Of a DNA stretch of 64,000 bases, positions 5,930 through 63,208 are shown piece after piece. Both the position numbers and the translations under genes were made by a program. The notes beneath the pieces were generated by a model. That model had not been told where the DNA came from and searched no databases. It worked only from the letters and a program-made list of their open reading frames with translations. The stretch's first letter is position 1. Each line of letters starts with the position of its first letter. This DNA is from a virus: positions 1-64,000 of IMG/VR virus record IMGVR_UViG_3300032373_000002; one strand, written 5' to 3'.

Positions 5930-8900
5930 ATGAGTGACCTCAACCTCAAAGCTGTTTTGGATCTCAGCATCGGCTCCATCACGCGCGGACGCTCGGCCGA
6001 GCGCGAGCTGGCGAAGCAATTCGGAGCGGCGGCTGCGGAAGGGGTCCAGAAGGGCTTGAAGGAGGGCACTCGGCGGGCGACTGGGGAGATGGAGCGCGTC
6101 TGGACCAAGCTCCTCGATGCAACCATGGTGGGTGCAGGCAAAGAGCTGCGCAAGACCTTTCAAGAAGGGGCGCGGCTCCAAGAGAAGACGCTCAAGGAGC
6201 TGGCATCCGTCGAGGGTCAGCTCCAGCGAAGTCGGGACGAGTCCGTCAAGAAGGGGCTGCGGGAACGCAAAATTCAGCTCCAGCGCGAGATCAAGCTCCA
6301 AAAGAAAGCCCAGAAGAACCTCCTCGAGAACGCGGAGCGTTCCGCGGAGCGTCGGTTGGAGGTCAACCGCGCCCACGAAGAACGGATGCACAACCTCCGT
6401 ATGGAGAGCGGGGAGAAGTTCGCCAGCCTGATCAACAGCTCCATCAACCTGGATCAGCTCGACCCCTCTTCCTTCGTGGAAAGCATCCTGAGCGGTCTCA
6501 GCTCCGCTGCCACGATGGGGGCCGGAGCATTGGCTGCTGGCGGGAAAGCAGGAGCTGCCGCCTCTCTGGGAACAGCTGCCGCATCGCTCACTGCAGTGGC
6601 AGCCCCCATCGCTGCCCTGGTTGGAGTGTTGACCGCCGCGATGGAAGGCTCTCGGGCCATGAACGCAGCCTTCATGGAGAGCTATTCGGCCGCTGATGTT
6701 CTTGCGGGCAGCTTCGATACGCTCTCTACAGGGGCGGGGGCACTTACCGTCGAGTACAACCAGCTTCAAGTACGGCTGGCGCTGCTGCGACGGGCCAGCA
6801 TCGATTTGGCCTATGACTACAGGATGAGCAAAGAAGAGGTCATCGGCTACACCAACGCGCTGGCCGATGCCGGGTTCACCTTCGGTGAGTTCCGCGATGT
6901 CGTCAAGGGCAGCACCAGTGACATCCAAGCCCTCAGTGATGTGACGCGGGTGGCCATCTTGTCCAGCCAGGGGCTGGGAATCTCGGCCAGTGAGACCTCC
7001 GAGTTCATCAACCGGATGTACCAAGACCTCGGGGCCGATCTGACAGGGATCCAAGGAGCCTTCGGGATGATCTTTAGCGAAGCCCGCAAGGCCGGGATGA
7101 GCACCAAGGACTTCTTCAGCACCATCAACCAGGCTGCCTCGGGCATGGCCCTCTACAACTTCCGCATCGGGGACACGGTCGGGCTGCTGTCAGACATGGT
7201 AGACATCCTCGGGGAGGACCTCGCCAAGGCCAACATCGGCCTGGAGGGTCAGTTCCGAGGTCAGACAATGACCTCCCGCATCAAGTCTACGATGCTCATG
7301 GGAACTGGACGTGCTCAGTCGATCGCCCGTGCAGACGCTCTTGCGCAGGGTCGCCAGATGGGGACCGTGGGTGGCATGGACCTGAGCAGCGAAGCGGGGC
7401 TGCGCCAGCTGGCCAACCTCACCGGACGCGCCTTCCGCGACACCCTGCGCGACGTAGAGGACCCCGCTCAACGACGTCAGCTCATCACGCTCCGAGAGCT
7501 GGCCCAGAGCATGAAGGGGGGGCTGGTCAATGTGGCCGAGAGCCTGGGCAGCTTGAGCAAGACAGGGGAACTGGCTGCTCAGCTCAGCCAGGGAGCAGCC
7601 CTCCTGGGGGGTCGGGGGATCGGCGAAGCCGGGGGGATGCAGCGGGCCATGATCGAGGAAGCCCTGGGGATTTCCGGAGAGCAGTTCGAGATCTTGAAGC
7701 GGCTTGACATCGGCCTCCGCAGCGAGTTCGAGCGGATGCAGGAGAGCGACAAGACCCTGACCATGAGCTTCGAAGAAGCCTTGGCCTCGGGGCTGCTGAG
7801 TCAGAGCGACATGCTCCAACAGACCGCCGAGCTTCAGTACTCCTTGATGGAGCGCACAGCGCAAGAGCAGCTCCGTGAGACCCGCTCCATGACCCAGACC
7901 ATGAGCAACGTGATTGCAGGGCTGCTGGAGAACATCTCCGTAGGCGTCAACCACCTCGTGACCCTGTTCGAGAACTCCTTCCTGTTCAAGGGGGACTCGA
8001 CCCTGGAAGGTCGACGCAGGAGCCTCAGCAACGAAGAGGCGGCACGCTCTGCCCTGGATGCGATCAGCGACGAGCTGCTGAACAAGCGCTCTGCCCTGAC
8101 AGCTGAAGAGGACCCGGCCAAGCGTGCCGCCCTGGCGGAGGAGATCAAGGCCCTCGAAGCCAGCGCCGAGGGTCATCGGGAACGGGTCAGCCGAGAACAG
8201 AAGGTCCGTTCAAGGATCTCGATGGGAGAGTCCCCCGGCGCTGCTCGCCAAGCCGTCGCCGAAGATATGTTCCGCCAACAGTTCGGACAGAGCGCCTCAG
8301 GATACGCTTCCGGCCTCAGCGCAGAGCAGCTGGGAGCCATGGGTATCAGCAAGTATCGAGTGCGGATGGGCGGCGGGGGGATGCCCATGGGTCGCGGCGA
8401 GGCGATGGGGATGCAGGATGTGATCCGCCGCCTCAATGCCGGAGAGATGACCCGCCAAGAGGCGGAGAACCTGGGCTTCGAAGTCGCCCTCAACCCCCTC
8501 CAGCGGCTCAGCGAAGAGCAGATCGAGGTGCTCACCAGTCAGGCGGAAGAGAACCGTAGGCAAGAGCAAAATATCGCAGACAACCAAGAGAAGAAGCAGG
8601 AAGCGACCACTGCTGCGGTGAATCAGCTCGTCGAGACCATGCGCCAAGAGCAGCTGGCCAAGATCACAGGCGCTACCGGACTGAGCGCGCGAAAGCTCCA
8701 GGGCCTGATGCAGCAAGGGTTCAGCGGGGAGCAGCAGATCATCAGTGCTGTCCGAGGAGCTGTCGGAGGGGAAGGGGGCATCACCGAGCGGGAGGCCAAG
8801 GAGTACCTGGGCCTGTTGAACTTGGAGTATGGTGCTCCCATGAACGACTTCATGTACCAAGGGGGCAGGGGCGGTCGAGCACGGGTCACCCCCATCTCCT

Positions 8901-10800: not shown

Positions 10801-11088
10801 ATGAAAACCCAAGCCCGACAGCTGGCAGAAGAAATTCCCCTCTACGGAATCTCCAACGAGGAGGAGCTGTACGCCGCCCACCAAGAGTGTACCTTCTGCT
10901 ATGTCCGCAACGACGGCTTCTACAAGGTCTACGGCTTCGATGACGGCAGCCTGCTGTGCTTCGACCAAGAAGACTGGAAGTGGAAGACCGTCCGCCGCCG
11001 CAAGAACAGGTGGGAGGACGAGACCGGCAAGTACCTGGCCACCCTGAAAGGAGCGGAGCCGGTCTACTGGACCCGGTACGACCCATGA
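10801..11088 (+). CDS. hypothetical protein
   Basis: ORF coupled (ATGA) to next gene. Confidence 0.6.
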   Translation: MKTQARQLAEEIPLYGISNEEELYAAHQECTFCYVRNDGFYKVYGFDDGSLLCFDQEDWKWKTVRRRKNRWEDETGKYLATLKGAEPVYWTRYDP

Positions 11089-45302: not shown

Positions 45303-45589
45303 GCCTACTCAACCAAGTCCGCGTTATGCTGGATTCCGGGGCCAAAGATTGCATCGGGCTCTGCACACGGAACACCTACGGAGAAGCCTGGGACCATCTG
45401 GCACTGACCCTACCTCCGGAAGCCGTCTTCCAGGGGGAGCGGGTTCAGTGGGGGCCGCGCTCTATCACTGTCAAGAAGCTCGAAGACGAGCCGCTGAAGG
45501 TCGCAGGGGCAGAGCTGTTCTTGCTGGTCGGAGTAGAGACCCTGGACCCAGCGGAGGCAGTGGGCTATGGCCGGTGGACCCGAGCATAG
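45299..45589 (+). CDS. hypothetical protein
   Basis: GTGA coupling. Confidence 0.55.
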   Translation: MSLLNQVRVMLDSGAKDCIGLCTRNTYGEAWDHLALTLPPEAVFQGERVQWGPRSITVKKLEDEPLKVAGAELFLLVGVETLDPAEAVGYGRWTRA

Positions 45590-45950
45590 GCTGTACCAAT
45601 TGGTGGTGGGCGGAGGCCAACCGTTCGCTCTGGACTCCGAGACCCTGCCAGCGTTTTGCCATGACGGCAAGACAACGGCGGGGTCTCTCATGTTGACCTC
45701 GCCCCAAGCAACCTACCTTGAGCAGACCCTTCGGGGTCTGGGTTGCAGGGTTGAAATTCGCTGCGAAGATGGAAAAGCTCCTGAAGGCAACTACCTTTAC
45801 AAGGAATGCGAGGAGTGCCCGTGGGCGTATCCTGAACACGAGGTAAGCCCATGCGGTTGGAGGGTCTGGGAACAGGCGGTGAGGGAATCGCTGCTGCGGA
45901 CCAGCCCAGCCCACCGCCAAGCACTCAAAACCTGTCCGGGAGAAGAATGA
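45567..45950 (+). CDS. Cys-rich hypothetical protein
   Basis: CEECPW...PCG; overlapping neighbours. Confidence 0.55.
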   Translation: MAGGPEHRLYQLVVGGGQPFALDSETLPAFCHDGKTTAGSLMLTSPQATYLEQTLRGLGCRVEIRCEDGKAPEGNYLYKECEECPWAYPEHEVSPCGWRVWEQAVRESLLRTSPAHRQALKTCPGEE

Positions 45951-46213
45951 CCTACAAAGCTGATGTGACTGTGAAGATCGCCACCAAGAAGGGCAATGCC
46001 AAGGTCCACCTGTGCTTGGGGGGAGCGGACTTTCCCTGGCGCGCAGAAGGCAACCGCGTGGTGATCGGACCCGGCAAGACAGGACCCCGCTGGAACACCC
46101 ATCGCTTCTGGGTGGCGGATGCAGTCCTGAAGGGCGGTCGCGTGACCCGACTCACCCCCGCCGAGTACCAGGAGGCCCTGGACAAGGCGGAGGAAAAGTT
46201 CCAATCTCAGTAG
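45947..46213 (+). CDS. hypothetical protein
   Basis: ATGA coupling; GGAG RBS. Confidence 0.6.
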   Translation: MTYKADVTVKIATKKGNAKVHLCLGGADFPWRAEGNRVVIGPGKTGPRWNTHRFWVADAVLKGGRVTRLTPAEYQEALDKAEEKFQSQ

Positions 46214-46245
46214 CGTTCCCCACTCTATCATGCTATGGGGATGGC

Positions 46246-46323
46246 ATGACTCGCTTCTTGAGCCTCCCCCCGAAAAACTTCTGGCGCCGATACTGGCGTT
46301 CGGAAGGGGGTACTGGGTTCTGA
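46246..46323 (+). CDS. attenuator leader peptide MTRFLSLPPKNFWRRYWRSEGGTGF
   Basis: GGGGA RBS; aromatic/Arg codon cluster; overlaps the antiterminator 5' strand. Confidence 0.65.
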   Translation: MTRFLSLPPKNFWRRYWRSEGGTGF

Positions 46324-46395
46324 GAGGCCGCTGCAACCGCAGCACACTCTGACCCAAGAAGCCCCTTCCCCACCCGGAAGGGGCTTCTTCTGTTT
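46266..46395 (+). promoter_or_regulatory. transcription attenuator (alternative 1:2, 2:3 and 3:4 hairpins)
   Basis: GGAAGGGG 46302-09 pairs with CCCCTTCC 46362-69 and TGGGTT with GACCCA; mutually exclusive with the terminator. Confidence 0.7.
46356..46395 (+). terminator. intrinsic terminator of the attenuator
   Basis: AAGAAGCCCCTTCC/GGAAGGGGCTTCTT perfect stem, 6-nt loop, TTCTTCTGTTT tail. Confidence 0.8.
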
Positions 46396-46409
46396 GGAGG
46401 CCCAGAGAA

Positions 46410-46419
46410 CTTTGAAAAC
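46410..46419 (+). promoter_or_regulatory. boxA-like antitermination element
   Basis: CTTTGAAAAC, repeated exactly at 51811. Confidence 0.5.
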
Positions 46420-46431
46420 ACCATACCAATC

Positions 46432-46514
46432 GGGGGAGATGCTCTCTGGGAAGAGCATCAGCCTGTAAAGCTGAAGCCCTCCGGGGCCTGGAGGTTCGAA
46501 TCCTCTCTCCCCCA
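46432..46514 (+). tRNA. tRNA-Tyr(GTA)
   Basis: GGGGGAG/CTCCCCC acceptor; TCAGC-CTGTAAA-GCTGA; long variable arm; T arm. Confidence 0.9.
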
Positions 46515-46519
46515 TTTCT

Positions 46520-46594
46520 GCGTCGTAGGGAAGGTTCCCCGGTCGGTCTCCAAAACCGATGTCTGTCAGCAGAGTTCGATACTCTCGCGGCGTG
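46520..46594 (+). tRNA. tRNA-Trp(CCA), atypical D arm
   Basis: TCGGT-CTCCAAA-ACCGA; GTTCGATA T loop; GU-rich acceptor. Confidence 0.75.
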
Positions 46595-46598
46595 CTTT

Positions 46599-46704
46599 GG
46601 GTGTAGACGTAGATCCTGCGGAGCCTGGGAGGTCGCAGGGGTAAGGAGTCGCTTAGGGGAGCCCAGTCCCCCACGAGGTTCGGGTTCGACCCCCGATACA
46701 CCCA
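46599..46704 (+). ncRNA. tRNA-like RNA A (enlarged D region, non-canonical anticodon hairpin)
   Basis: GGGTGTA/TACACCC-A acceptor; TCGGG-TTCGACC-CCCGA T arm. Confidence 0.7.
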
Positions 46705-46707
46705 CTC

Positions 46708-46818
46708 GGGACCGTCAGTCAATCGGTAGGCGCATCAGCGGAGCGCCCTACTCCAGACAAGGGGAGTAGGGAACGGGCAGGACGCAGGTGAATGGAGGTT
46801 CAAGTCCTCCCGGTCCCA
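46708..46818 (+). ncRNA. tRNA-like RNA B (anticodon arm replaced by long stem)
   Basis: GGGACCG/CGGTCCC-A; D loop with GGTA; GGAGG-TTCAAGT-CCTCC; CCCTACTCC/GGAGTAGGG distal stem. Confidence 0.75.
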
Positions 46819-46867
46819 CTCGGCAACCTATGAACCATAAAAGCTAAACGCACTGGCGGAGCTTCAT

Positions 46868-47338
46868 GTGTTCTACACCGCCTACAAGACCACCCACCTC
46901 GCCTCCGGGAAGACTTACATCGGGGTCCACAAGACCAAGAGGACCGACGACCGCTACTTGGGGTCCGGGACCTACTTGAAGAAAGCTATCCGGAAGCATG
47001 GAGCAAAAGCTTTCAAGAAAGATGTCCTCTACATCTTCGACTCTGAGCAGGAAATGCTCGAGAAAGAGAGGGAGTTGGTCGATGAAGCCTTCGTAGCCCG
47101 TCGTGACACCTACAACCTCTCGCTGGGAGGCTTGAAGGTTCCTGACAACACCCATGTCTGGAGAGCCCACGGCTCGGGACAGGGGTTTTCCCCCAACCCC
47201 GCAGGACCCGGAACCGTCCCGTGGAACAAGGGCAAGACTAAAAAGACTTGCTCTAAGGTAAGAGAGAACGCAAAGGCAATAGCTGAAGCGACTAAGAGGA
47301 GGAAGAGGAAAGGCGGTCGGTTCGCGAAAGAGGGCTGA
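46868..47338 (+). CDS. free-standing GIY-YIG homing endonuclease (Seg-like)
   Basis: YTAYKTTHL.SGKTYIGVHKT...D.YLGSG..LKKAI.KHG...F.K; PWNKGK (NUMOD-like) motif. Confidence 0.88.
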   Translation: MFYTAYKTTHLASGKTYIGVHKTKRTDDRYLGSGTYLKKAIRKHGAKAFKKDVLYIFDSEQEMLEKERELVDEAFVARRDTYNLSLGGLKVPDNTHVWRAHGSGQGFSPNPAGPGTVPWNKGKTKKTCSKVRENAKAIAEATKRRKRKGGRFAKEG

Positions 47339-47351
47339 CAACCTATAATAT

Positions 47352-47491
47352 GGCGAGGTGGGCAAAAGGAAAAGCCACTGGTTCAAGGCACCAGAGATTA
47401 GCATCTCTCAGCTGCGCAACTCGCTCTCCTAACCAGAGAGCCCTACGCATCAGCCTACAAGCATTTGCAGGTTCGAGTCCTGCCCTCGCCA
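47352..47491 (+). ncRNA. tRNA-like RNA C (72-nt variable-arm domain; loop TCAAGGC)
   Basis: GGCGAGG/CCTCGCC-A; GGC/GCC D stem; CTGGT/ACCAG; GCAGG-TTCGAGT-CCTGC. Confidence 0.8.
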
Positions 47492-47494
47492 CTC

Positions 47495-47587
47495 AAAACC
47501 TCTCCCCAGAAAAGGGCCGAACCTTCGCTCGGTGTCCGGCTGGAAGCGCCCGCGTGGAGCGTACAACTTCCTCTGGGGAGAGGTTTT
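47495..47587 (+). ncRNA. long-terminal-stem RNA 1
   Basis: 16-bp perfect stem AAAACCTCTCCCCAGA/TCTGGGGAGAGGTTTT enclosing a structured 61-nt core. Confidence 0.5.
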
Positions 47588-47591
47588 TTCT

Positions 47592-47665
47592 GCACTCTTA
47601 GCTCAATCGGATAGAGCACTGCGCTACGGACGCAGGGGTTGGGGGTTCAAGTCCCTCAGAGTGCG
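47592..47665 (+). tRNA. tRNA-Arg(ACG)
   Basis: Canonical cloverleaf; CTGCG-CTACGGA-CGCAG. Confidence 0.95.
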
Positions 47666-47671
47666 TATTTA

Positions 47672-47814
47672 GGGGAAGTCGCCGGATGGTCCGGCAATCG
47701 GTCAGTAAAACCGATGCATCACGCATCTCCAGAAGCGGTCCTCGCCTCCTCCGACCGAAGAGGCACCTCACCAGCTTCCTACAAGCTCAGTAGGTTCGAT
47801 TCCTACCTTCCCCT
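47672..47814 (+). ncRNA. tRNA-like RNA D (74-nt variable-arm domain; loop CAGTAAA)
   Basis: GGGGAAG/CTTCCCC; GCCGG/CCGGC D stem; ATCGGT/ACCGAT; GTAGG-TTCGATT-CCTAC. Confidence 0.8.
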
Positions 47815-47857
47815 CTCCAGTAAAAATGCTCCCTACAAAACCTCTTGAGGAGAGCAA

Positions 47858-48544
47858 ATGACGGAACAGAAGCCCAAGAGACACCTCCGAGAACTTCCGT
47901 GGGTAGCGGGAGACCCCAAGCGACTGGTCTTGACCCCCCTCGGAAGGTTCGTCGCTCAGCCCGTCGGGAACACCGGCTACGGCACCGGCCTCCACGTCTA
48001 CGCTCACTTGGATGGGGAGGAAGAGTCGGTATCTGGACTCTTCTCTTTCGGGGCGAAGATCACTCCTGACGGCAAGGTGGTCTGGTCCCAGCGGCAACCG
48101 AACTACCGCATGAAGCACGACCGGGCTGATGAACTCCTTCAGGCATGCCTGAAAATTGCCGAGGACTGGTTCGAGCGGGACCCGGGCCACTGTGCTTCCT
48201 ACTACGGGGGCCTCGCCCGCCGAGAGCTCTACGAGATGAGCCGAGAAATCCGGAGCGAGGAGCACATCATCGGTGTCCTTCAAGGACTGCTGGAAGACCC
48301 GGCAGCACCGAAGACCCGCAGAGAAAAGCAGCCGGACGGTGAGTGGGTGACGGTCCCACTCACCCCGGAGGAGAGAGAAGAACGACGGAAGACTTGGCGC
48401 CGGAACCTCCTCCGGGCAGAAAAGAAAATAGAGGCCCTGAAAGCTCAACGACCCCGACGCATTCAGTTGGAAGAGATCCGAGACCTGATCGACTTGTTCC
48501 TCGAAGGCGCGATCGACAGTCCCTTCCCATTCCCGGCTGAGTAG
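47858..48544 (+). CDS. hypothetical protein with coiled coil
   Basis: GAGGAG RBS. Confidence 0.7.
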   Translation: MTEQKPKRHLRELPWVAGDPKRLVLTPLGRFVAQPVGNTGYGTGLHVYAHLDGEEESVSGLFSFGAKITPDGKVVWSQRQPNYRMKHDRADELLQACLKIAEDWFERDPGHCASYYGGLARRELYEMSREIRSEEHIIGVLQGLLEDPAAPKTRREKQPDGEWVTVPLTPEEREERRKTWRRNLLRAEKKIEALKAQRPRRIQLEEIRDLIDLFLEGAIDSPFPFPAE

Positions 48545-48575
48545 GGGTAACCTACAGCAAGTCAAGGAGGACTGC

Positions 48576-48800
48576 ATGCCCAACACACTGCCCCCCGTCG
48601 GAACCCGTGTCCGCGCCAAGGTCGATATCCACGACGACGCCTCGAACCGTCGCATCCCTCAGCACGCCAAGGCGGGAGACACGGGAATCGTCGAGGGCTA
48701 CTTCGGCAATGATGAGGTCCCGACGATCAACTGGGGTGCCGGCACTGGCCGCGGGGTCTACGACAGCCCCTGGTACCAGCTGGAAGTCCTCAAGGACTGA
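48576..48800 (+). CDS. small SH3/KOW-like protein
   Basis: PVGTRVR...AGDTGIV...INW; AGGAGG RBS. Confidence 0.6.
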   Translation: MPNTLPPVGTRVRAKVDIHDDASNRRIPQHAKAGDTGIVEGYFGNDEVPTINWGAGTGRGVYDSPWYQLEVLKD

Positions 48801-48816
48801 ACAGGTAAGCGGGCTC

Positions 48817-49053
48817 ATGAGAATAGAGCCCCACCAAAGCTACACCTTCCAGGTCTTCGACGAGAACGACCGCGTCGCAGGCTACCTCAAAAACTCTGAG
48901 GGGGCCTGGGAGTGCTTCGACCCCCACGGGGTCGCCATCCCCACCAACCCTGTCCAAGGGCTGGTACGGGCAGCCGGGGTGGTTCTCCGCGACTACGCCC
49001 TACAGGCGCAGGTGCCCCCGCACTGGAGACGGAGTCGCGGGTATACGCTCTGA
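48817..49053 (+). CDS. hypothetical protein (probably leaderless)
   Basis: ATG 8 nt after GTAA motif. Confidence 0.55.
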   Translation: MRIEPHQSYTFQVFDENDRVAGYLKNSEGAWECFDPHGVAIPTNPVQGLVRAAGVVLRDYALQAQVPPHWRRSRGYTL

Positions 49054-49078
49054 TCGCCAAGGAAGGCAGGAGTCTTCA

Positions 49079-49315
49079 ATGAGCAACAAGCGCAACCATC
49101 GCAGGGGCCACGGACGCATCCAAGGCAACGGACCCCGCTACGAGAACCCGAACCCCTCCGACGGCTGCAACTCCACCCACGTTGCCAAGGGTCGCCGAGA
49201 CTGGAAACGCATCGGCAACCGCGCGCTCCGACGTACCGGAGGCAAGAGCGAAGGCGGGAGGTGGGGTGCCCCATTGACCGGCCCGACCGTAGACCAGGAC
49301 TGGGGCGAAGAGTAA
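49079..49315 (+). CDS. small basic protein
   Basis: AGGAG RBS. Confidence 0.55.
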   Translation: MSNKRNHRRGHGRIQGNGPRYENPNPSDGCNSTHVAKGRRDWKRIGNRALRRTGGKSEGGRWGAPLTGPTVDQDWGEE

Positions 49316-49345
49316 GCCTCTACGAACCCAGCAAGGGAGCGCACG

Positions 49346-49795
49346 ATGGCAGACGGGATGTTCAACAGCGGCGGAGGTTCCTCTTCGGGCGGTAGCGGGG
49401 GCTACAATGACTACAGCACCAACTACTACGGCAGCAGTAATCACGGGGGAGGCGGGGACCTCGGCGCTGGAGGGGTGATCGTGCTCGCGGCGGTTATCGT
49501 CCTCATGGTGGTCGCGGTGGCCTACAACAAACACGCCGAAGCCGAGGCGCTGGCTCAGGAACGGCAGCTGGACCGCACCACCTACAAGAACAACGCCGAA
49601 GCCAACTTCGAAGCCTGGACCGAGGCGATGGGCTTCCAAGTCAAGGAAGGGAGCCTGTTCATGGAGCCGGGTTCCTCTCGCCGGGAGAACTACCACTGCA
49701 AGGGGGGTCAGTTCTTCGACCTGACGACCAACCGGAACATCACCTACTGCTGTGCAGTGCAGAGCAACCCCCCCGCACGCTGCTTGGAGATCTGA
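49346..49795 (+). CDS. single-pass membrane protein
   Basis: Gly/Ser/Tyr-rich N-terminus; TM segment VIVLAAVIVLMVVAVAY; Cys-rich C-terminus. Confidence 0.65.
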   Translation: MADGMFNSGGGSSSGGSGGYNDYSTNYYGSSNHGGGGDLGAGGVIVLAAVIVLMVVAVAYNKHAEAEALAQERQLDRTTYKNNAEANFEAWTEAMGFQVKEGSLFMEPGSSRRENYHCKGGQFFDLTTNRNITYCCAVQSNPPARCLEI

Positions 49796-50105
49796 TGCCC
49801 TACGAAGGCCCGATGCACGTTCGAATTCAAGGGAGCGCGAGGGAGGTCGACCGGCTGAAGGAGAAGCCTCAGCAACAGCCGGTGGCGCGAGGGGAAGGCA
49901 TAGACATAGAGGTCATCCTGTGAGCCTGGGCCAACGCGAAGCAGAGCGGTGCCGCTGGCGCCGGGAGCTGATGAGCCTCCCAGGCGGGGTCCAAGAACTC
50001 CTGCGGGTGGCCACCGCCAACAAGTTCATGGAGCGGCGCATCGGACCCAGGAGCATCCTCTTGAGGGAGCCGTTGCGGTCCAAGATGGCGGAACGAGGCT
50101 GGTAA

Positions 50106-50178
50106 GGGTCCGTAGCTCCACGGGTAGAGCACCGTCCTCTTAAGTCGGGGGTTGAGGGTTCGAGTCCCTCCGAACCCC
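50106..50178 (+). tRNA. tRNA-Lys(CTT)
   Basis: GCTC/GAGC D stem; CTCTTAA loop; GAGGG-TTCGAGT-CCCTC. Confidence 0.85.
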
Positions 50179-50215
50179 CTCCTTGCCGCTGCCGTAACCC
50201 TGAGCGGAGGCAAGA

Positions 50216-50695
50216 ATGAACCGAGAAAAGAAGTTGCGGAAATTCGAGGAGGACTTGCTCCTCTGGGCGGCGAACCAACCCAGCGACGGGATAGAGATCC
50301 AATACCTTCGCCCCAACCGCCTCAACCCGGACTTCCCCGTCGAGGCTTCCGCCAAGTGGCTGGACCGACTGCCCGAAGGGCCCCTGAAGGCCCAGAAGGC
50401 GCTCAGAAAGACCCAAGAGGACTACCTGGCCCTGGGGCGTAAGGGGTGCTCCTCCGATAACCTGGACTGGGTTCGGCTGGTAGCCGAACTGCGGGGGATG
50501 CACTGGGACTGCCCAACCCTCGGTGTCTGGGTAGACTTCCAGCCGCCCTCCGACGAGGGCATGAAAGACAAGATCCTCCTGGTTTCCCTGGACTGGCGGT
50601 GGTGGGGCATCGATGACCGCTTCGGCCACCGTCGGCGGAAGGTGTTCACGTACAAGACCGTGGCCGAGTACTCCGGCCCGCTCCCCAAGGTGTAG
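50216..50695 (+). CDS. hypothetical protein
   Basis: GGAGG RBS. Confidence 0.65.
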   Translation: MNREKKLRKFEEDLLLWAANQPSDGIEIQYLRPNRLNPDFPVEASAKWLDRLPEGPLKAQKALRKTQEDYLALGRKGCSSDNLDWVRLVAELRGMHWDCPTLGVWVDFQPPSDEGMKDKILLVSLDWRWWGIDDRFGHRRRKVFTYKTVAEYSGPLPKV

Positions 50696-50696
50696 C

Positions 50697-51137
50697 ATGG
50701 AAGATTTCAAGCGGATGAGGGTAGCCGAACTGCGGGCTGAGCTGGACGAACACGGAGTCCAGTACAAGGCATCGACGCGCAAGCCGGAACTCCTCCGGCT
50801 CCTGGAGTTAGCCATCAAGGCCAAGAAGAGGGTGCACGCCCTCCGCATCCTGGATGAGATCGAGTACTGGTTCGTAAAGATGGCACCCCCGCCGCAGCCC
50901 GACATCATCGCGGAAGGGCTCCAGGACAAGACCGAGGGGTGGACATTCAACGTCCACACCAAGGAAGTCAAGCGGTACTGGACCACCCACTGGAATCACG
51001 GCAAGGTCGGGCGGGTGGAGGGTTGGTCGCAGGGCGGCGTGGACCTCTTCCGCAAGAAAGAAGACGCACATCGGCGGATGCGGTACGAGTACCTCCGGCG
51101 GATGATCAAGGGATTGGAGGGCCTGGACGCCCCGTAA
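50697..51137 (+). CDS. SAP/HeH (Rho-N-like) nucleic-acid-binding domain protein
   Basis: MRVAELRAELDEHGV......RKPELLRLL. Confidence 0.65.
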   Translation: MEDFKRMRVAELRAELDEHGVQYKASTRKPELLRLLELAIKAKKRVHALRILDEIEYWFVKMAPPPQPDIIAEGLQDKTEGWTFNVHTKEVKRYWTTHWNHGKVGRVEGWSQGGVDLFRKKEDAHRRMRYEYLRRMIKGLEGLDAP

Positions 51138-51227
51138 CGACATGCAACACCAACCATGGAGTCTCCCAGGCCGAGAGAAGAAGACCTGAGAGACTGGGCG
51201 GAGGGTAACACTTCTTGCACGCTAAAT

Positions 51228-51311
51228 GCGGTGGTGGCGGAATCGGTCTACGCAGCAGATTCAAAATCTGCCGACCTTCGGGTCTTGAGGGTTCGAATCC
51301 CTCTCACCGCA
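51228..51311 (+). tRNA. tRNA-Leu(CAA)
   Basis: Canonical class II; GCAGA-TTCAAAA-TCTGC. Confidence 0.95.
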
Positions 51312-51504
51312 CTCAACCCCTGGAGCCTACGATGCACCCAAGCCGAAGCCGATACTGCACGGCCAAGCACCCCCAGACCGGGGAGCGGTGCCGCCGGAAG
51401 TGGATGCACTGGGGTCAGCATCGGACCCACGCCGACGCCAAGGGCATCGTCCTGAAGTGGTTCGGCTCGACCAACAACTGAGACTTGGAGCTCCGGTAAC
51501 AACA

Positions 51505-51791
51505 CTTGCGCCAGGAAGCCCTAACGCCGGCAACCCATGGTGGGTTGTACGGGCATCTTGGAGGCAGAGTCCGGGGGTTCGAGTCCCCCCTACAACACCT
51601 TCCCTACTCTAAACACCACACTCTGTTGTGTTCGGAAGGTGCCGTAAGTAACCCAAGCCGCTGAAACTGACAGTAGAGCGTGTAAGGCTGAGGTGGGAGG
51701 TTGCTGGTGGAGGCTCTTGTGGCTGGATCTGGGTATCCTTGGGGAGTTTAACTGCCTCCTTGAAGAGAGGTTCGATTCCTCTCCTGGCCTT
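51505..51791 (+). ncRNA. structured non-coding region with two T-arms
   Basis: GGGGG-TTCGAGT-CCCCC and GAGAGG-TTCGATT-CCTCTC; several long helices; no credible ORF. Confidence 0.5.
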
Positions 51792-51810
51792 TTGAGAAGA
51801 GAACTCACCT

Positions 51811-51820
51811 CTTTGAAAAC
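51811..51820 (+). promoter_or_regulatory. boxA-like element
   Basis: CTCTTTGAAAAC upstream of second tRNA run. Confidence 0.5.
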
Positions 51821-51969
51821 CCAAGCTGATCGACTTCCCCCCGGAGGGTGGTTGCCTCAACAGCAACACCCTCTTGGTCAGGGGACAGCCGCTGAGGGAG
51901 TGCGGCTGCTAAGGGACCAGGGTTCCCCGGACAACAACCACACCGTCCAAAACCCGAACCCCTCTTCAT

Positions 51970-52067
51970 GTACCAGGTAGCTCAACGGGAGAGTATCGCG
52001 GGGCCTACGAACTCCGGAGGTTCAGCGCCTAATGCGAAGGTTGCAGGTTCGAGTCCTGCCTTGGTAC
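51970..52067 (+). ncRNA. tRNA-like RNA E (G-1:C73 His-type end, extended anticodon arm)
   Basis: G-TACCAGG/CTTGGTA-C; TAGCTCAACGGGAGAG D arm; TCGCG/TGCGA stem enclosing nested hairpins. Confidence 0.75.
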
Positions 52068-52075
52068 CTCAAATC

Positions 52076-52159
52076 CTGAGGGTGGAGAAAATGTCATACT
52101 CGGCGGGTTGGGCACTCGCTGGCCAAGCGGTCGTGTAGGTTCGAATCCTACCCCTCAGG
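52076..52159 (+). tRNA. class-II tRNA with GGG anticodon (identity uncertain)
   Basis: CTGAGGG/CCCTCAG-G; GCGGG-TTGGGCA-CTCGC; TGGCC/GGTCG variable arm; GTAGG/CCTAC. Confidence 0.75.
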
Positions 52160-52259
52160 TCGTCCCAGGCCTCCTAACGCCTCAGAGACCCTTGCAGTAG
52201 TCCGGCAAGGAGAGAGGCAGCAGGGGGTGCTGGCACCCTTCCGAGAGGTACATCTGAGT

Positions 52260-52336
52260 CGGGGAATAGCGCAGTCTGGTAGCGCAGCGGCTTTGGGAGC
52301 CGAAGGTCGTAGGTTCGAATCCTGCTTCCCCGACCA
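52260..52336 (+). tRNA. tRNA-Pro(TGG), CCA encoded
   Basis: Canonical; C1:G72; CTTTGGGAG around the anticodon. Confidence 0.95.
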
Positions 52337-52391
52337 CCAACACGACCTTCCGCCGCGCTCTGGAGCGCTTGGCGAGCAGGTAACAACGGAT

Positions 52392-52630
52392 AGGCAAGCC
52401 TGATTGCCTGGTTCGGGCGGAGCAGTTCTCCTGGGGGACTGCAACACCGCTAACAAAACGAACCGAAGCAGACGGGGATGCGCATCCCCGCTGACGCTGG
52501 ATGCATAAGCCTTGGGGAAGGCTGAAACCTCTGGGTCGGGGACGCCCGATTCGGAGGAGAACCCGGCGACACCTTGCCGGCCTGGATCCGAGGCGAGTGG
52601 TGTGACCCAGTCGGGGAGAGTCCCGGCACC
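52392..52630 (+). ncRNA. large multi-hairpin RNA
   Basis: At least 7 perfect or near-perfect hairpins back to back; starts 8 nt after a GTAA motif. Confidence 0.55.
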
Positions 52631-52632
52631 TT

Positions 52633-52705
52633 GATGACATAGCTCAGCAGGTAGAGCAGCAGATTGTTAATCTGCCGGTCCCAGGTTCGAGCCCTGGTGT
52701 CATCG
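52633..52705 (+). tRNA. tRNA-Asn(GTT)
   Basis: GCAGA-TTGTTAA-TCTGC; canonical D and T arms. Confidence 0.93.
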
Positions 52706-52737
52706 TCACCGAAAACTGAGGCAGGCCACCTCGGCTG

Positions 52738-52821
52738 CCGGACCCCCCACCCACGCCAGACGCGCGAGCGCGCCGGGGCCAACCTGGGCTCCTCGAACGG
52801 GAGTTGGAGTGGGGGGTCCGG
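52738..52821 (+). ncRNA. long-terminal-stem RNA 2
   Basis: CCGGACCCCCCAC/GTGGGGGGTCCGG 13-bp stem with structured core. Confidence 0.5.
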
Positions 52822-52839
52822 ATAGGTAACACCAAACAT

Positions 52840-52911
52840 CTCTCCGTAGTTCAACGGACAGAACTTCGGCCTCCTAAGCCGAAAATCCAGGTTCGAATCC
52901 TGGCGGGGAGA
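52840..52911 (+). tRNA. tRNA-Arg(CCT)
   Basis: TCGGC-CTCCTAA-GCCGA; canonical. Confidence 0.93.
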
Positions 52912-52969
52912 CTCAACTTGACAGAGACCGTTCAACTTGTCCGGCTTGGCATAGCCAAAGGAGGACGGG

Positions 52970-53191
52970 ATGAGTCAAGAAGAAAGAGAGCGTGAGTTCT
53001 TCCAGCGCCTGTTGGCGCTCACCAAGCAGTACGGAGTGACCGAAATCGGAAGCTGCGGTTGCTGCGGGGGTGTCCGGGTCAACTGGGAGGGCGTGCAGTA
53101 CGACAACGTCGAGGTCAACAAAAACGGCCTCTGCGCCAGTCGCTACGACATCCAAGCCAAGACCTACAACGGGTCGCAGAAGCTCACATAA
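52970..53191 (+). CDS. small protein with CGCC motif
   Basis: AGGAGG RBS. Confidence 0.6.
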   Translation: MSQEEREREFFQRLLALTKQYGVTEIGSCGCCGGVRVNWEGVQYDNVEVNKNGLCASRYDIQAKTYNGSQKLT

Positions 53192-53509
53192 GCTCTTCGC
53201 GAGGACCTCTGCGCGCAGCCCTGCCTCTTCAGAGGGGATCGGGGTGAAGTGGGGTGACCAGGGGGAGAGGCCCCTTTCATTAAGCCTCAGCAACCACTTG
53301 TCCTGAGCCGCCCGTGTAGAGGGAGCAGCCGAGTAGATGTCCGGGGAGAGCGAAAGCCGAACCGGCAGTCAAGAAGGGGTTCCGAGCGGGGTCAAGTCGC
53401 AGTAGCACCAGCGTCTCGAGTAAGCTGGTCGCGACCTTCGGAGGGACAGGCATCGGAGGAGCCACACCACCTTCGGGTGGGTGCTTGGGTTCGAATCCCA
53501 AGGGGGGCC
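53192..53509 (+). ncRNA. about 318-nt structured RNA with tRNA-like ends
   Basis: TTGGG-TTCGAAT-CCCAA T arm; GCTCTTC/GGGGGGC closing helix; UUCG/GNRA hairpins. Confidence 0.55.
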
Positions 53510-53558
53510 GTTCAGTAGTTATTGCCCCTATTTCCAGCCCTGGTTGGAGGTAGGGGCA

Positions 53559-53855
53559 ATGCTTTTCTTGAAAGGGTTCCTGATAGGATCCACGTCGGTC
53601 GGTGCGGGCACGTGGCGGATGCTGTCGGTTCATGAAGGCCGCCCGCTCAACACAGTCTTGGCGTCGAGCCTTATCTCCGTCACCTACATCTTCGGGGTCA
53701 ACTTCGTCGTCAAGGAGCAGTGGGCGGGCTACATCGGATTCAGCGTGGGGGCAGCCTTGGCGACCGGATTGTTGGCACACAAGAGGAAGAACCGGCCCAC
53801 GGTAATCCTCCTTGAGGAGAAATGCGATGCGCGACACCCTGAGAAGGAATCTTGA
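53559..53855 (+). CDS. small membrane protein (about 3 TM)
   Basis: Hydrophobic segments; purine-rich RBS. Confidence 0.6.
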   Translation: MLFLKGFLIGSTSVGAGTWRMLSVHEGRPLNTVLASSLISVTYIFGVNFVVKEQWAGYIGFSVGAALATGLLAHKRKNRPTVILLEEKCDARHPEKES

Positions 53856-62605: not shown

Positions 62606-63208
62606 ATGATCGACAAGAAGTCCATGACCGTCGAGGGTTGCGAACCCCTGAGCTACTGCCCGGACCTGTTCGCGGACCAGGCAGACCGGCTGCTGGAGCT
62701 GGTTCGCCCCCAGCTCCTCAGCAGGACCGAAGTCCGGCAGGAGTGCTTCCTGAGCCCGACTCCCCGAGACTACACCTACGGTGTGGGGCGGGGGGCGAGG
62801 ACCTACTCCAGCACCCCGATGTGCCGCGAGCTTCAGGAGTTCTTAAGCTCCGTGAGCATGGCGGTCAGCGTGTTCTGCGGCTACGGCATCGGGGCGAAGC
62901 GGTTCAATGCCGTCTTCGTGAATCAGTACCTGAACAAACGTCAGCACCTGGGGTGGCACGCCGACGACTCTCCGGAACAGGACCCCCACATGCCCATCGC
63001 CGTGGTCAGCTTTGGGCAGGCCCGTGAGATCTGGTGGCGCCCCAACGGCCAGAAGGGGGAGGTCCCTCCCTCTCAGCGCCAGATGCTGGAGCACGGAAGC
63101 CTGTTCGTGATGTCGCCGGGGTTCCAGGACCTGTACCAGCACCGGATCCCAAAGGGGGACCGAGAGATGGGGGAACGTCTCAGCTTCACGTTCCGTTGTT
63201 TCCGCTGA
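62606..63208 (+). CDS. AlkB-family 2OG/Fe(II) dioxygenase
   Basis: FNAVFVNQY....LGWHADD...IAVVSFG..R...LEHGSLFVM..GFQ..YQHRIPK......RLSFTFR. Confidence 0.9.
   Translation: MIDKKSMTVEGCEPLSYCPDLFADQADRLLELVRPQLLSRTEVRQECFLSPTPRDYTYGVGRGARTYSSTPMCRELQEFLSSVSMAVSVFCGYGIGAKRFNAVFVNQYLNKRQHLGWHADDSPEQDPHMPIAVVSFGQAREIWWRPNGQKGEVPPSQRQMLEHGSLFVMSPGFQDLYQHRIPKGDREMGERLSFTFRCFR

Follow-up and report, generated by a model that had tools for sequence, protein, structure and literature searches.

We wondered how a phage might control a large tRNA array of its own when the first tRNA gene lies 35 nt behind a strong transcription terminator. The control of phage tRNA genes is, to our knowledge, essentially unstudied. 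The locus lies in the first 64 kb (64,000 nucleotides, here called the window) of a 115,448-bp IMG/VR virus record with a CheckV completeness estimate of 22% and a GC content of 62%. Proteins identical to those of the window are also encoded on a 410,989-bp contig and the source is therefore a huge phage. ARAGORN called 16 tRNA genes between 46.4 and 68.5 kb of the record, all on the plus strand, which are scattered among protein genes and tRNA-like RNAs called by neither ARAGORN nor Rfam. A first-pass annotation made from the sequence alone had placed a ribosome-sensing attenuator at the head of these genes; each of the elements it described was recovered at its given position.

The leader region and its terminator

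The features of the region are listed below. Distances and folds discussed in the text refer to these elements, and "gate" denotes a short open reading frame (ORF) followed by a terminator ahead of tRNA genes.

45947-46213, plus strand: 88-aa gene, recognised by its ORF, a ribosome-binding site, a coding score of +0.39, homologues and synteny with a distant relative, G001 (L005)
46228-46249, plus strand: hairpin H1, 9 bp with a GGGG loop, -10.7 kcal/mol; the leader AUG lies in its 3' arm
46246-46323, plus strand: leader ORF, 25 codons plus TGA, equal in length to the ORF of gate 1 of G001
46258-46299, plus strand: candidate control codons 5-18 (Leu Ser Leu Pro Pro Lys Asn Phe Trp Arg Arg Tyr Trp Arg)
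46262-46289, plus strand: segment 1, which in minimum-free-energy folds pairs with segment 2 (through CCCCC at 46267-71 and through 46279-89) if it is not covered by a ribosome
46298-46310, plus strand: segment 2, codons 18-22, containing GGAAGGGG; its partner is either segment 1 or the 5' arm of T1
46302-46370, plus strand: predicted antiterminator, the pairing of segment 2 with segment 3 closing over H3, -38.4 kcal/mol
46314-46355, plus strand: hairpin H3, -18.4 kcal/mol, enclosed by the antiterminator
46356-46397, plus strand: intrinsic terminator T1, 14-bp stem, 6-nt loop and U-rich tail; its arms align with both G001 terminators
46408-46419, plus strand: boxA-like motif with the core CTTTGAAAAC; a CTTTG core aligns after all three terminators
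46432-46593, plus strand: tRNA-Tyr(GTA) and an atypical tRNA-Trp(CCA), the first two genes behind the gate
46432-53521, plus strand: gated unit 1, 7 kb, with tRNAs, tRNA-like RNAs, a GIY-YIG endonuclease gene and several protein genes
53522-53569, plus strand: terminator T2, strong, closing unit 1 just past a tRNA-like T arm

The 88-aa gene is the last of a block of protein genes that is syntenic with G001, and T1 is the first strong plus-strand terminator past this tightly packed operon. The T1 hairpin (46356-46389) forms a perfect 14-bp stem of -25.6 kcal/mol followed by CTGTTTGG, in agreement with the terminator and U-rich tail described in the first-pass annotation. A GC-rich hairpin directly before a U-rich tract is the hallmark of an intrinsic (Rho-independent) terminator, and T1 shares the A-rich 5' flank and T-rich 3' flank of the other intrinsic terminators of the record. 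A consensus scan missed it because its tail has fewer than five T in an 8-base window. The stop codon of the 88-aa gene lies 143 nt ahead of T1, whereas a reading of hairpin and ORF coordinates gave gaps of about 5-14 nt for three other terminators of the record.

Within this unusually long gap we recovered the annotated leader ORF, 25 codons followed by TGA. The leader frame had the best coding score of the three frames, with a value (+0.07) that is intermediate when compared with +0.37 for real genes. Its Shine-Dalgarno pairing is moderate (-5.5 kcal/mol) against a median of -7.3, the latter taken from the best-scoring candidate start per ORF in a crude set of ORFs of at least 110 aa. We found no sigma-70 promoter for the leader or in the 35 nt between T1 and tRNA-Tyr. 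The tRNAs therefore probably depend on read-through of T1, and a ribosome would have to load onto the leader de novo or to re-initiate 33 nt past the upstream stop codon. The first-pass annotation had called this an established trpL-type architecture, which overstates the case: translation of the leader is a prediction, the leader AUG is held in a hairpin of -10.7 kcal/mol and a promoter was not found.

Other ways of reading the spacer were less successful. An ORF of 40 codons (46230-46352) runs in another frame than the leader, ends 3 nt before T1 and is about equally rich in the same amino acids; we rejected it as a real small gene since it has a coding score of -0.25 and no ribosome-binding site, is absent from the protein collection and would impose the wrong regulatory logic. 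A programmed -1 frameshift carrying the 88-aa gene into the leader frame was discarded because reading of the sequence revealed no slippery site at a usable distance. The shared 12-mer TTCCCYACTCTA is not enriched and was dropped as a promoter motif, and repeats of the leader were not found elsewhere in the record. A known RNA family or a T-box was set aside as well: between 45800 and 47700, at E values up to 1, Rfam returned tRNA-type matches, a single chance match on the strand opposite tRNA-Arg and nothing that fits the T-box covariance model.

Alternative folds and codon content of the leader

The 218-nt spacer is strongly structured (z = -5.45 against shuffles), and the mutually exclusive pairings proposed for it could be reproduced. 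GGAAGGGG (46302-46309) finds its complement in CCCCTTCC (46362-46369) of the 5' arm of T1, which yields the alternative structure of -38.4 kcal/mol. The proposed 1:2 hairpin is also present, with CCCCC at 46267-71 pairing with GGGGG at 46306-10 around an inner stem (46279-89 with 46294-305). We then folded the nascent RNA with a ribosome masking positions -15 to +12 nt around each codon. With the ribosome on any of codons 1-15 the antiterminator was the minimum-free-energy fold, and with the ribosome on codons 16-26 it was not formed. In unmasked nascent RNA the 5' arm of T1 paired with the H1 region instead, and in full-length RNA the terminator was formed in every fold. The switch anticipated for a stalled ribosome thus appeared for codons 1-15 and failed for stalls at Tyr16, Trp17 and Arg18, because with this standard footprint a ribosome at the last three codons of the run masks segment 2 rather than freeing it.

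How much of this would arise by chance? An upstream copy of the T1 3' arm of 8 nt or longer was found in 3-4% of dinucleotide shuffles (P = 0.03-0.04). When pairing was scored by the number of arm bases, at least 8 of 12 were paired upstream in 35% of shuffles and at least 10, the native value being 10, in 9%. Structure alone is therefore weak evidence in GC-rich RNA.

The codon run TTC TGG CGC CGA TAC TGG CGT is present at 46279-46299 as annotated. The six codons for Tyr, Trp and Arg (CGU/C/A) within it form the only run of at least six such codons in all six frames of the 115-kb record; about half of this run is forced by the GGCGCC palindrome of a hairpin, H2. The annotation had named Tyr, Trp and Arg(ACG) as the first conventional tRNAs downstream. 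Tyr and then Trp do come first, whereas Arg(ACG) is not third and lies 1.2 kb downstream: the gene order is Tyr, Trp, two tRNA-like RNAs, a GIY-YIG homing endonuclease gene, an insert-bearing Leu(CAA) and Arg(ACG). The tRNA-Trp is atypical, with two acceptor mismatches, no hit to the Rfam tRNA family and 28 bits only against the tRNA-Sec model. The anticodons of the two tRNA-like RNAs (46599-46818) were not readable for the codon match.

What lies behind T1 is also not the pure tRNA operon that had been suggested. The extent of unit 1 was set independently, by letting it run on to the following strong terminator of the plus strand (T2, 53522-53569), which gives a mixed unit of 7 kb with tRNAs or tRNA-like genes for Tyr, Trp, Leu, Arg(ACG), Lys, Leu(CAA), an Arg-like gene, Pro(GGG), Pro(TGG), Asn and Arg(CCT). 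All seven amino acids carried by the tRNAs of the unit occur in the leader (7/7, P = 0.009). Counted as distinct anticodons, a statistic that was chosen during the analysis after the data had been seen, as were the block boundaries, 7 of 9 are used by the leader (P = 0.024). The leader codon AAA is out of reach of the phage Lys(CUU) tRNA, as is the leader codon CTC of the Leu(CAA) tRNA. By a looser statistic the leader is unimpressive, as stretches with at least 8/24 codons of this first block occur at 104 places in the record. By hand count, the leader also covers 7/10 anticodons of the first tRNA block of G001, nearly as good as the 7/9 for its own unit. The match in the window is the weakest of the three gates described here and is unspecific against block 1 of G001. 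Further gates were not found in the record of the window, either before T2 or before T3.

A layout kept in a distant relative

No close relative emerged when viral, metagenome and genome collections were scanned with proteins and with DNA patterns, and a blastn search of a phage collection gave no match. Proteins of close relatives, with 85% (P0002 cluster) and 78% (P0004 cluster) identity to the products of upstream genes, were found on JGI and Logan contigs of at most 16 kb. The sole match of the genome scan, at 38%, was in a Prevotella MAG without tRNAs near it; a pattern of the tRNA-Tyr T arm matched nothing but a low-GC phage that is unrelated (L003). Distant homologues of the 88-aa protein came from a full HMMER search, and the alignment of six of them led to one IMG/VR record, G001 (288 kb, 79% complete, 61.7% GC). 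This record is collinear with the window over the SWIM-finger, 330-aa, 127-aa and 88-aa genes, at 28-38% protein identity, and carries 41 tRNA genes downstream of the collinear block on the same strand. The other records with SWIM homologues (G002-G005) are without a tRNA array, and the single tRNA-Asn of G005 is without a gate.

At the head of its tRNA array, G001 has an ATG ORF of 25 codons (L005:5885-5962), followed by a terminator of -37 kcal/mol, CTTCTTTGAC and the tRNAs, with tRNA-Leu first. The spacer is 257 nt long (z = -4.99), and the last codons of the ORF include a stretch rich in G that is the complement of the terminator's 5' arm. The AUG of this gate is unpaired, and a 1:2 pairing is present in its full-length fold. 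Up to the next strong terminator, block 1 of G001 holds ten tRNAs (three Leu, four Ser, Tyr, Phe and Trp), and the core of the ORF consists almost wholly of these five amino acids. It contains codons for all ten block-1 tRNAs (10/10, P = 1.7e-4 when compared with open windows from that region and P = 2.8e-4 when compared with random sets of ten anticodons).

A second gate lies about 25 nt before tRNA-Arg(ACG), the eleventh tRNA of the array. It has an ORF of 29 codons (L006:11025-11114, minus strand) and a terminator of -30 kcal/mol, in a region with z = -6.67. Among the 25 later anticodons, 18 serve codons of this ORF (P = 1.2e-3), which also covers 13/13 of their amino acids (P = 3.5e-3), yet only 2-3 of the 10 block-1 anticodons. 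When a block of ten tRNAs was slid along the array, the coverage by leader 1 fell from 10/10 to 1/9 and that by leader 2 rose from 3/10 to 8-9. The two G001 leaders hence show reciprocal specificity, each tracking the tRNAs behind its own gate. Folds of gate 2 did not display a 1:2 pairing, and a clear Shine-Dalgarno sequence was not found for either G001 leader. The AUG of gate 2 sits at the base of a hairpin, and for this reason the buried AUG of the window may belong to the design and need not count against it. Five other gaps in G001 held no further gate.

Several features are common to the three gates. In each, a short ORF lies upstream of the tRNA-containing genes and ends before the terminator, with 24-32 nt between stop codon and terminator. 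The best complement to the 5' arm of the terminator falls at the end of the ORF, within its last 4-8 codons, at codons 19-22 of 26 in the window, 21-23 of 26 in gate 1 and 25-27 of 30 in gate 2. A ribosome that has reached the stop codon therefore hides this complement, and one halted further upstream exposes it. Mask tests of both G001 gates gave the same switch as in the window. Taken singly, the antiterminator pairings are weak (P = 0.03, 0.04 and 0.14). The sequence of segment 2 changes together with both terminator arms, reading GGAAGGGG, GGGAGGG and GGAGGCC in the three gates. The layout is thus conserved in one distant syntenic relative, at two gates, with covariation between segment 2 and the terminator arms.

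All three terminators are followed by a CTTTG core. boxA elements of rrn operons and of lambda are NusB-NusE antitermination signals with a recognised consensus, and the motif behind T1 resembles it; CTTTGAAAAC occurs in the record only at 46410 and 51811. Like boxA in rRNA leaders, the motif precedes long untranslated RNA genes, with the CTTTG(A) core placed after each terminator. It differs from them in being only a short motif at three sites and we regard it as putative. Being placed past the terminator, it cannot act as the switch.

Probable attenuation and its competitors

Taken together, these data make it probable that the locus is a ribosome-mediated (leader-peptide) transcription attenuator that gates a 7-kb tRNA unit of a huge GC-rich phage, as judged from sequence and modelled folds. 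The comparative evidence from G001 decides in favour of this reading, since the same layout appears there twice with ORF codons that track their own tRNA block, and it lends support to what the first-pass annotation had proposed. The case from the window is only moderate when taken by itself, and on those data we would have considered attenuation possible but rather doubtful.

One alternative retains T1 as a real attenuator and makes the ORF incidental. A constitutive, partial read-through like that at the rplL-rpoB junction might then take place, or read-through might depend on a phage or host antitermination factor or on a cis-acting RNA of the put or boxA/Nus type. Such a device would suit the intercistronic position, the failure to find a promoter, the two hairpins upstream of T1 and the boxA-like CTTTG after 3/3 terminators. 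A boxA past a terminator is of no help in passing that terminator, however, and no Rfam family was detected in the leader. The match of each ORF to the codons of its own tRNA block would be left unexplained, and we consider this alternative unlikely.

T1 might also be an ordinary operon-end terminator of the 42.7-46.2 kb block, preceded by a structured 3' untranslated region. The ORF, the pairing and the codon match would then be coincidental, and expression of the tRNAs would rely on leak-through or on a phage promoter that escaped recognition. This would agree with the position of T1, which no strong plus-strand terminator precedes behind the tightly packed operon, with the frequent upstream pairing of the arm in GC-rich shuffles, with the abundance of codon-enriched stretches and with the buried AUG. 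Yet it requires three independent coincidences in two genomes, namely anticodon coverages of 10/10 and 18/25 with reciprocal specificity, segment 2 at the end of the ORF in 3/3 gates and the unusual spacer of 143 nt. Nor does a promoter fit between T1 and tRNA-Tyr, and an ordinary operon end therefore appears improbable. It is most improbable that 46228-46397 just encodes a small RNA, about 170 nt long and ended by T1 or else derived from the 3' untranslated region upstream, which would add a further structured RNA to a locus where tRNA mimics abound: the four consecutive hairpins ending in a terminator (z = -5.45) and a neighbourhood rich in non-coding RNAs would fit, but we found no promoter, no Rfam match and no repeat elsewhere in the record, the codon-to-tRNA covariation of G001 is not predicted, and such an RNA would not exclude an attenuator, given that terminated attenuator RNAs such as rnTrpL can act in trans (PMC6614838).

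Three gates in two genomes are most simply explained by a multivalent attenuator of the thr/ilv type that acts on tRNA genes. Like the leaders of thr (Thr/Ile), ilvGMEDA (Ile/Leu/Val), trpL and hisL, the gates place a short ORF ahead of an intrinsic terminator, with mutually exclusive 1:2, 2:3 and 3:4 pairings in the folds predicted for the window. The logic would likewise be that a ribosome at the end of the ORF leads to termination and an earlier stall to read-through. As in thr and ilvGMEDA, several different control codons are combined in one leader. The design principles of such leader-peptide attenuators have been discussed (PMC1183508). In contrast to the attenuators of amino-acid operons, the genes regulated here would be phage tRNA genes rather than biosynthetic enzymes, and the leader resembles a "checklist" in which many different anticodons are each used a single time, in place of one codon repeated in a run. 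The phage gate further differs in being intercistronic, with no promoter found and its AUG in a hairpin, and in lacking sequence homology or an Rfam family. In bacteria, the pheM leader of the pheST operon, which encodes Phe-tRNA synthetase, controls its operon by leader-peptide attenuation and senses charged tRNA through the speed of the ribosome. It is similar in attenuating a gene of the translation apparatus and different in that its target is a synthetase instead of tRNAs, its input a single amino acid and its host genome bacterial. T-box riboswitches are likewise attenuators that report tRNA status and control translation-related genes; they differ in binding uncharged tRNA directly, without an ORF. 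Full-text literature searches returned no description of leader-peptide control of phage tRNA genes, in line with the statement of the first-pass annotation that no phage tRNA cluster is known to be regulated in this way.

We propose the following mechanism for the attenuator, in which we infer that the leader is translated, that ribosomes stall on it and that read-through responds. Transcripts from upstream would arrive at T1 (46356-46397), 35 nt before tRNA-Tyr. If a ribosome runs to the end of the 25-codon ORF it would cover segment 2 (46298-46310), T1 would form and transcription would stop. If no ribosome is present, segment 1 would hold segment 2, T1 would form and transcription would also stop. 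A ribosome that lingers on codons 5-15 would mask segment 1, allowing segment 2 to pair with the T1 5' arm and polymerase to enter the tRNA genes. Among the amino acids specified by codons 5-15 are the ones carried by the tRNAs of the unit itself (Leu, Pro, Lys, Asn, Trp and Arg), with Tyr borderline. Slow reading of the codons of a block might result from a codon-usage mismatch with the host or from tRNA cleavage by host defences. The newly made tRNAs would relieve the stall and close the gate, resulting in a self-limiting supply loop. The boxA-like motif might render the read-through transcripts processive, as in rRNA operons. Across the three gates, each short frame would have been rewritten to list the tRNAs behind it, with the geometry of the RNA switch kept.

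Phage tRNAs rescue infection when host defences destroy specific tRNAs. The tRNA-Tyr of T5 counters Retron-Eco7 (PMC11555353) and its tRNA-Lys counters PARIS (PMC11464382), which makes an anticodon-nuclease defence a plausible trigger of the gate by analogy. If the attenuator reading is true, the leader would read the availability of exactly those tRNAs that lie behind it, creating a demand-driven feedback loop. Classical attenuation would be extended from amino-acid biosynthesis to the tRNA pool, with tRNA availability as a new input and tRNAs as the output, and the counter-defence by phage tRNAs would be regulated. The sorting of the tRNA genes into blocks would also be explained. The gates provide a simple, testable sequence signature for the annotation of phage genomes, and the three gates, spread over two genomes, are a source of natural "codon-swap" variants for experimental work. 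The lineage in question is one of GC-rich (62%) huge phages with tRNA mimics, represented by two genomes that form a natural pair, in which the differences between leaders parallel those between tRNA blocks. Whether this lineage as a whole runs a self-regulating tRNA supply is, in our judgement, evenly balanced; each block of tRNA genes might stand behind its own "codon checklist" leader and terminator and be transcribed only while ribosomes are slow on the codons of that block, with a boxA-like element providing processivity.

Sorting of tRNAs in G001

Two putative gates, each consisting of a short leader ORF and an intrinsic terminator before a tRNA block, are present in G001, the 288-kb distant syntenic relative of the window phage. 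The tRNAs of block 1 (the first ten, on the G001 stretches L006 and L007) serve precisely five amino acids, namely Phe, Leu, Ser, Tyr and Trp, and all tRNAs for the remaining amino acids of the array lie downstream of gate 2. The array is thus sorted by amino acid between the gates. Each of the two G001 leaders holds one Cys codon, although tRNA-Cys was not found in G001.

Atypical tRNAs and tRNA-like RNAs

Window 46519-46593, 'tRNA-Trp(CCA)'
Window 46599-46704, tRNA-like RNA of about 106 nt
Window 46708-46818, tRNA-like RNA of about 111 nt

The acceptor stem of 'tRNA-Trp(CCA)' carries two mismatches and its T stem has 4 bp; the sole Rfam match was a sub-threshold one to tRNA-Sec (28 bits). 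This RNA may mimic a tRNA instead of serving in decoding. Both tRNA-like RNAs combine canonical acceptor stems and T arms with expanded middles, and neither was called by ARAGORN or Rfam. The longer one has an anticodon-type loop of 9 nt and a long extra arm.

A separate 310-kb low-GC phage contig, L003, is unrelated and was matched by chance. It encodes the following:

L003 4745-4870 (minus strand), tRNA-like gene with a large insertion
L003 1277-1681, phage-encoded tmRNA

Protein genes in and near the tRNA region

Window 45567-45950, 127-aa ORF
Window 46868-47338, GIY-YIG homing endonuclease gene (phrog_314, E = 1e-36)
Window 62606-63208 and L007 8691-9164 (minus strand), AlkB-like protein gene, motif RQHLGWHADD

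The homing endonuclease gene interrupts the series of window tRNA genes, and a homologue (46% identity) lies in the G001 tRNA array. Despite a near-zero coding score (-0.01), the 127-aa ORF has a syntenic G001 homologue at 28% identity; its start or reading frame might have to be revised. The AlkB-like proteins of the two phages, encoded in the tRNA region of both, share 52% identity and may be RNA/tRNA demethylation repair enzymes.

Elements at the proposed gate and inside the gated unit

Window 46230-46352, 40-codon ORF in another frame than the leader ORF
Window 46408-46419 and 51809-51820, boxA-like motif (core CTTTGAAAAC)
Window 47567-47589, small 5-bp hairpin with a T6 run
L005 (a further G001 stretch) about 6060-6075 and L006 about 10945-10955 (minus strand), CTTTG core 3' of the gate terminators

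The 40-codon ORF scores poorly for coding. It starts in the 5' arm of hairpin H1 (46228-46249), stops 3 nt upstream of the terminator stem and is likewise rich in the amino acids of the gated unit's tRNAs; if a ribosome sat on the ORF's stop codon, the terminator would be blocked. Within the gated unit, the small hairpin ends 1 nt upstream of tRNA-Arg(ACG) and is possibly either a weak terminator or a signal for processing. The 115-kb record carries just two copies of the boxA-like motif with the core CTTTGAAAAC; both lie inside the tRNA/ncRNA region, and AGAGAACT precedes each of them. The CTTTG core also follows both gate terminators in G001. The boxA-like motif may represent an rrn-type antitermination signal that serves long untranslated RNA arrays.
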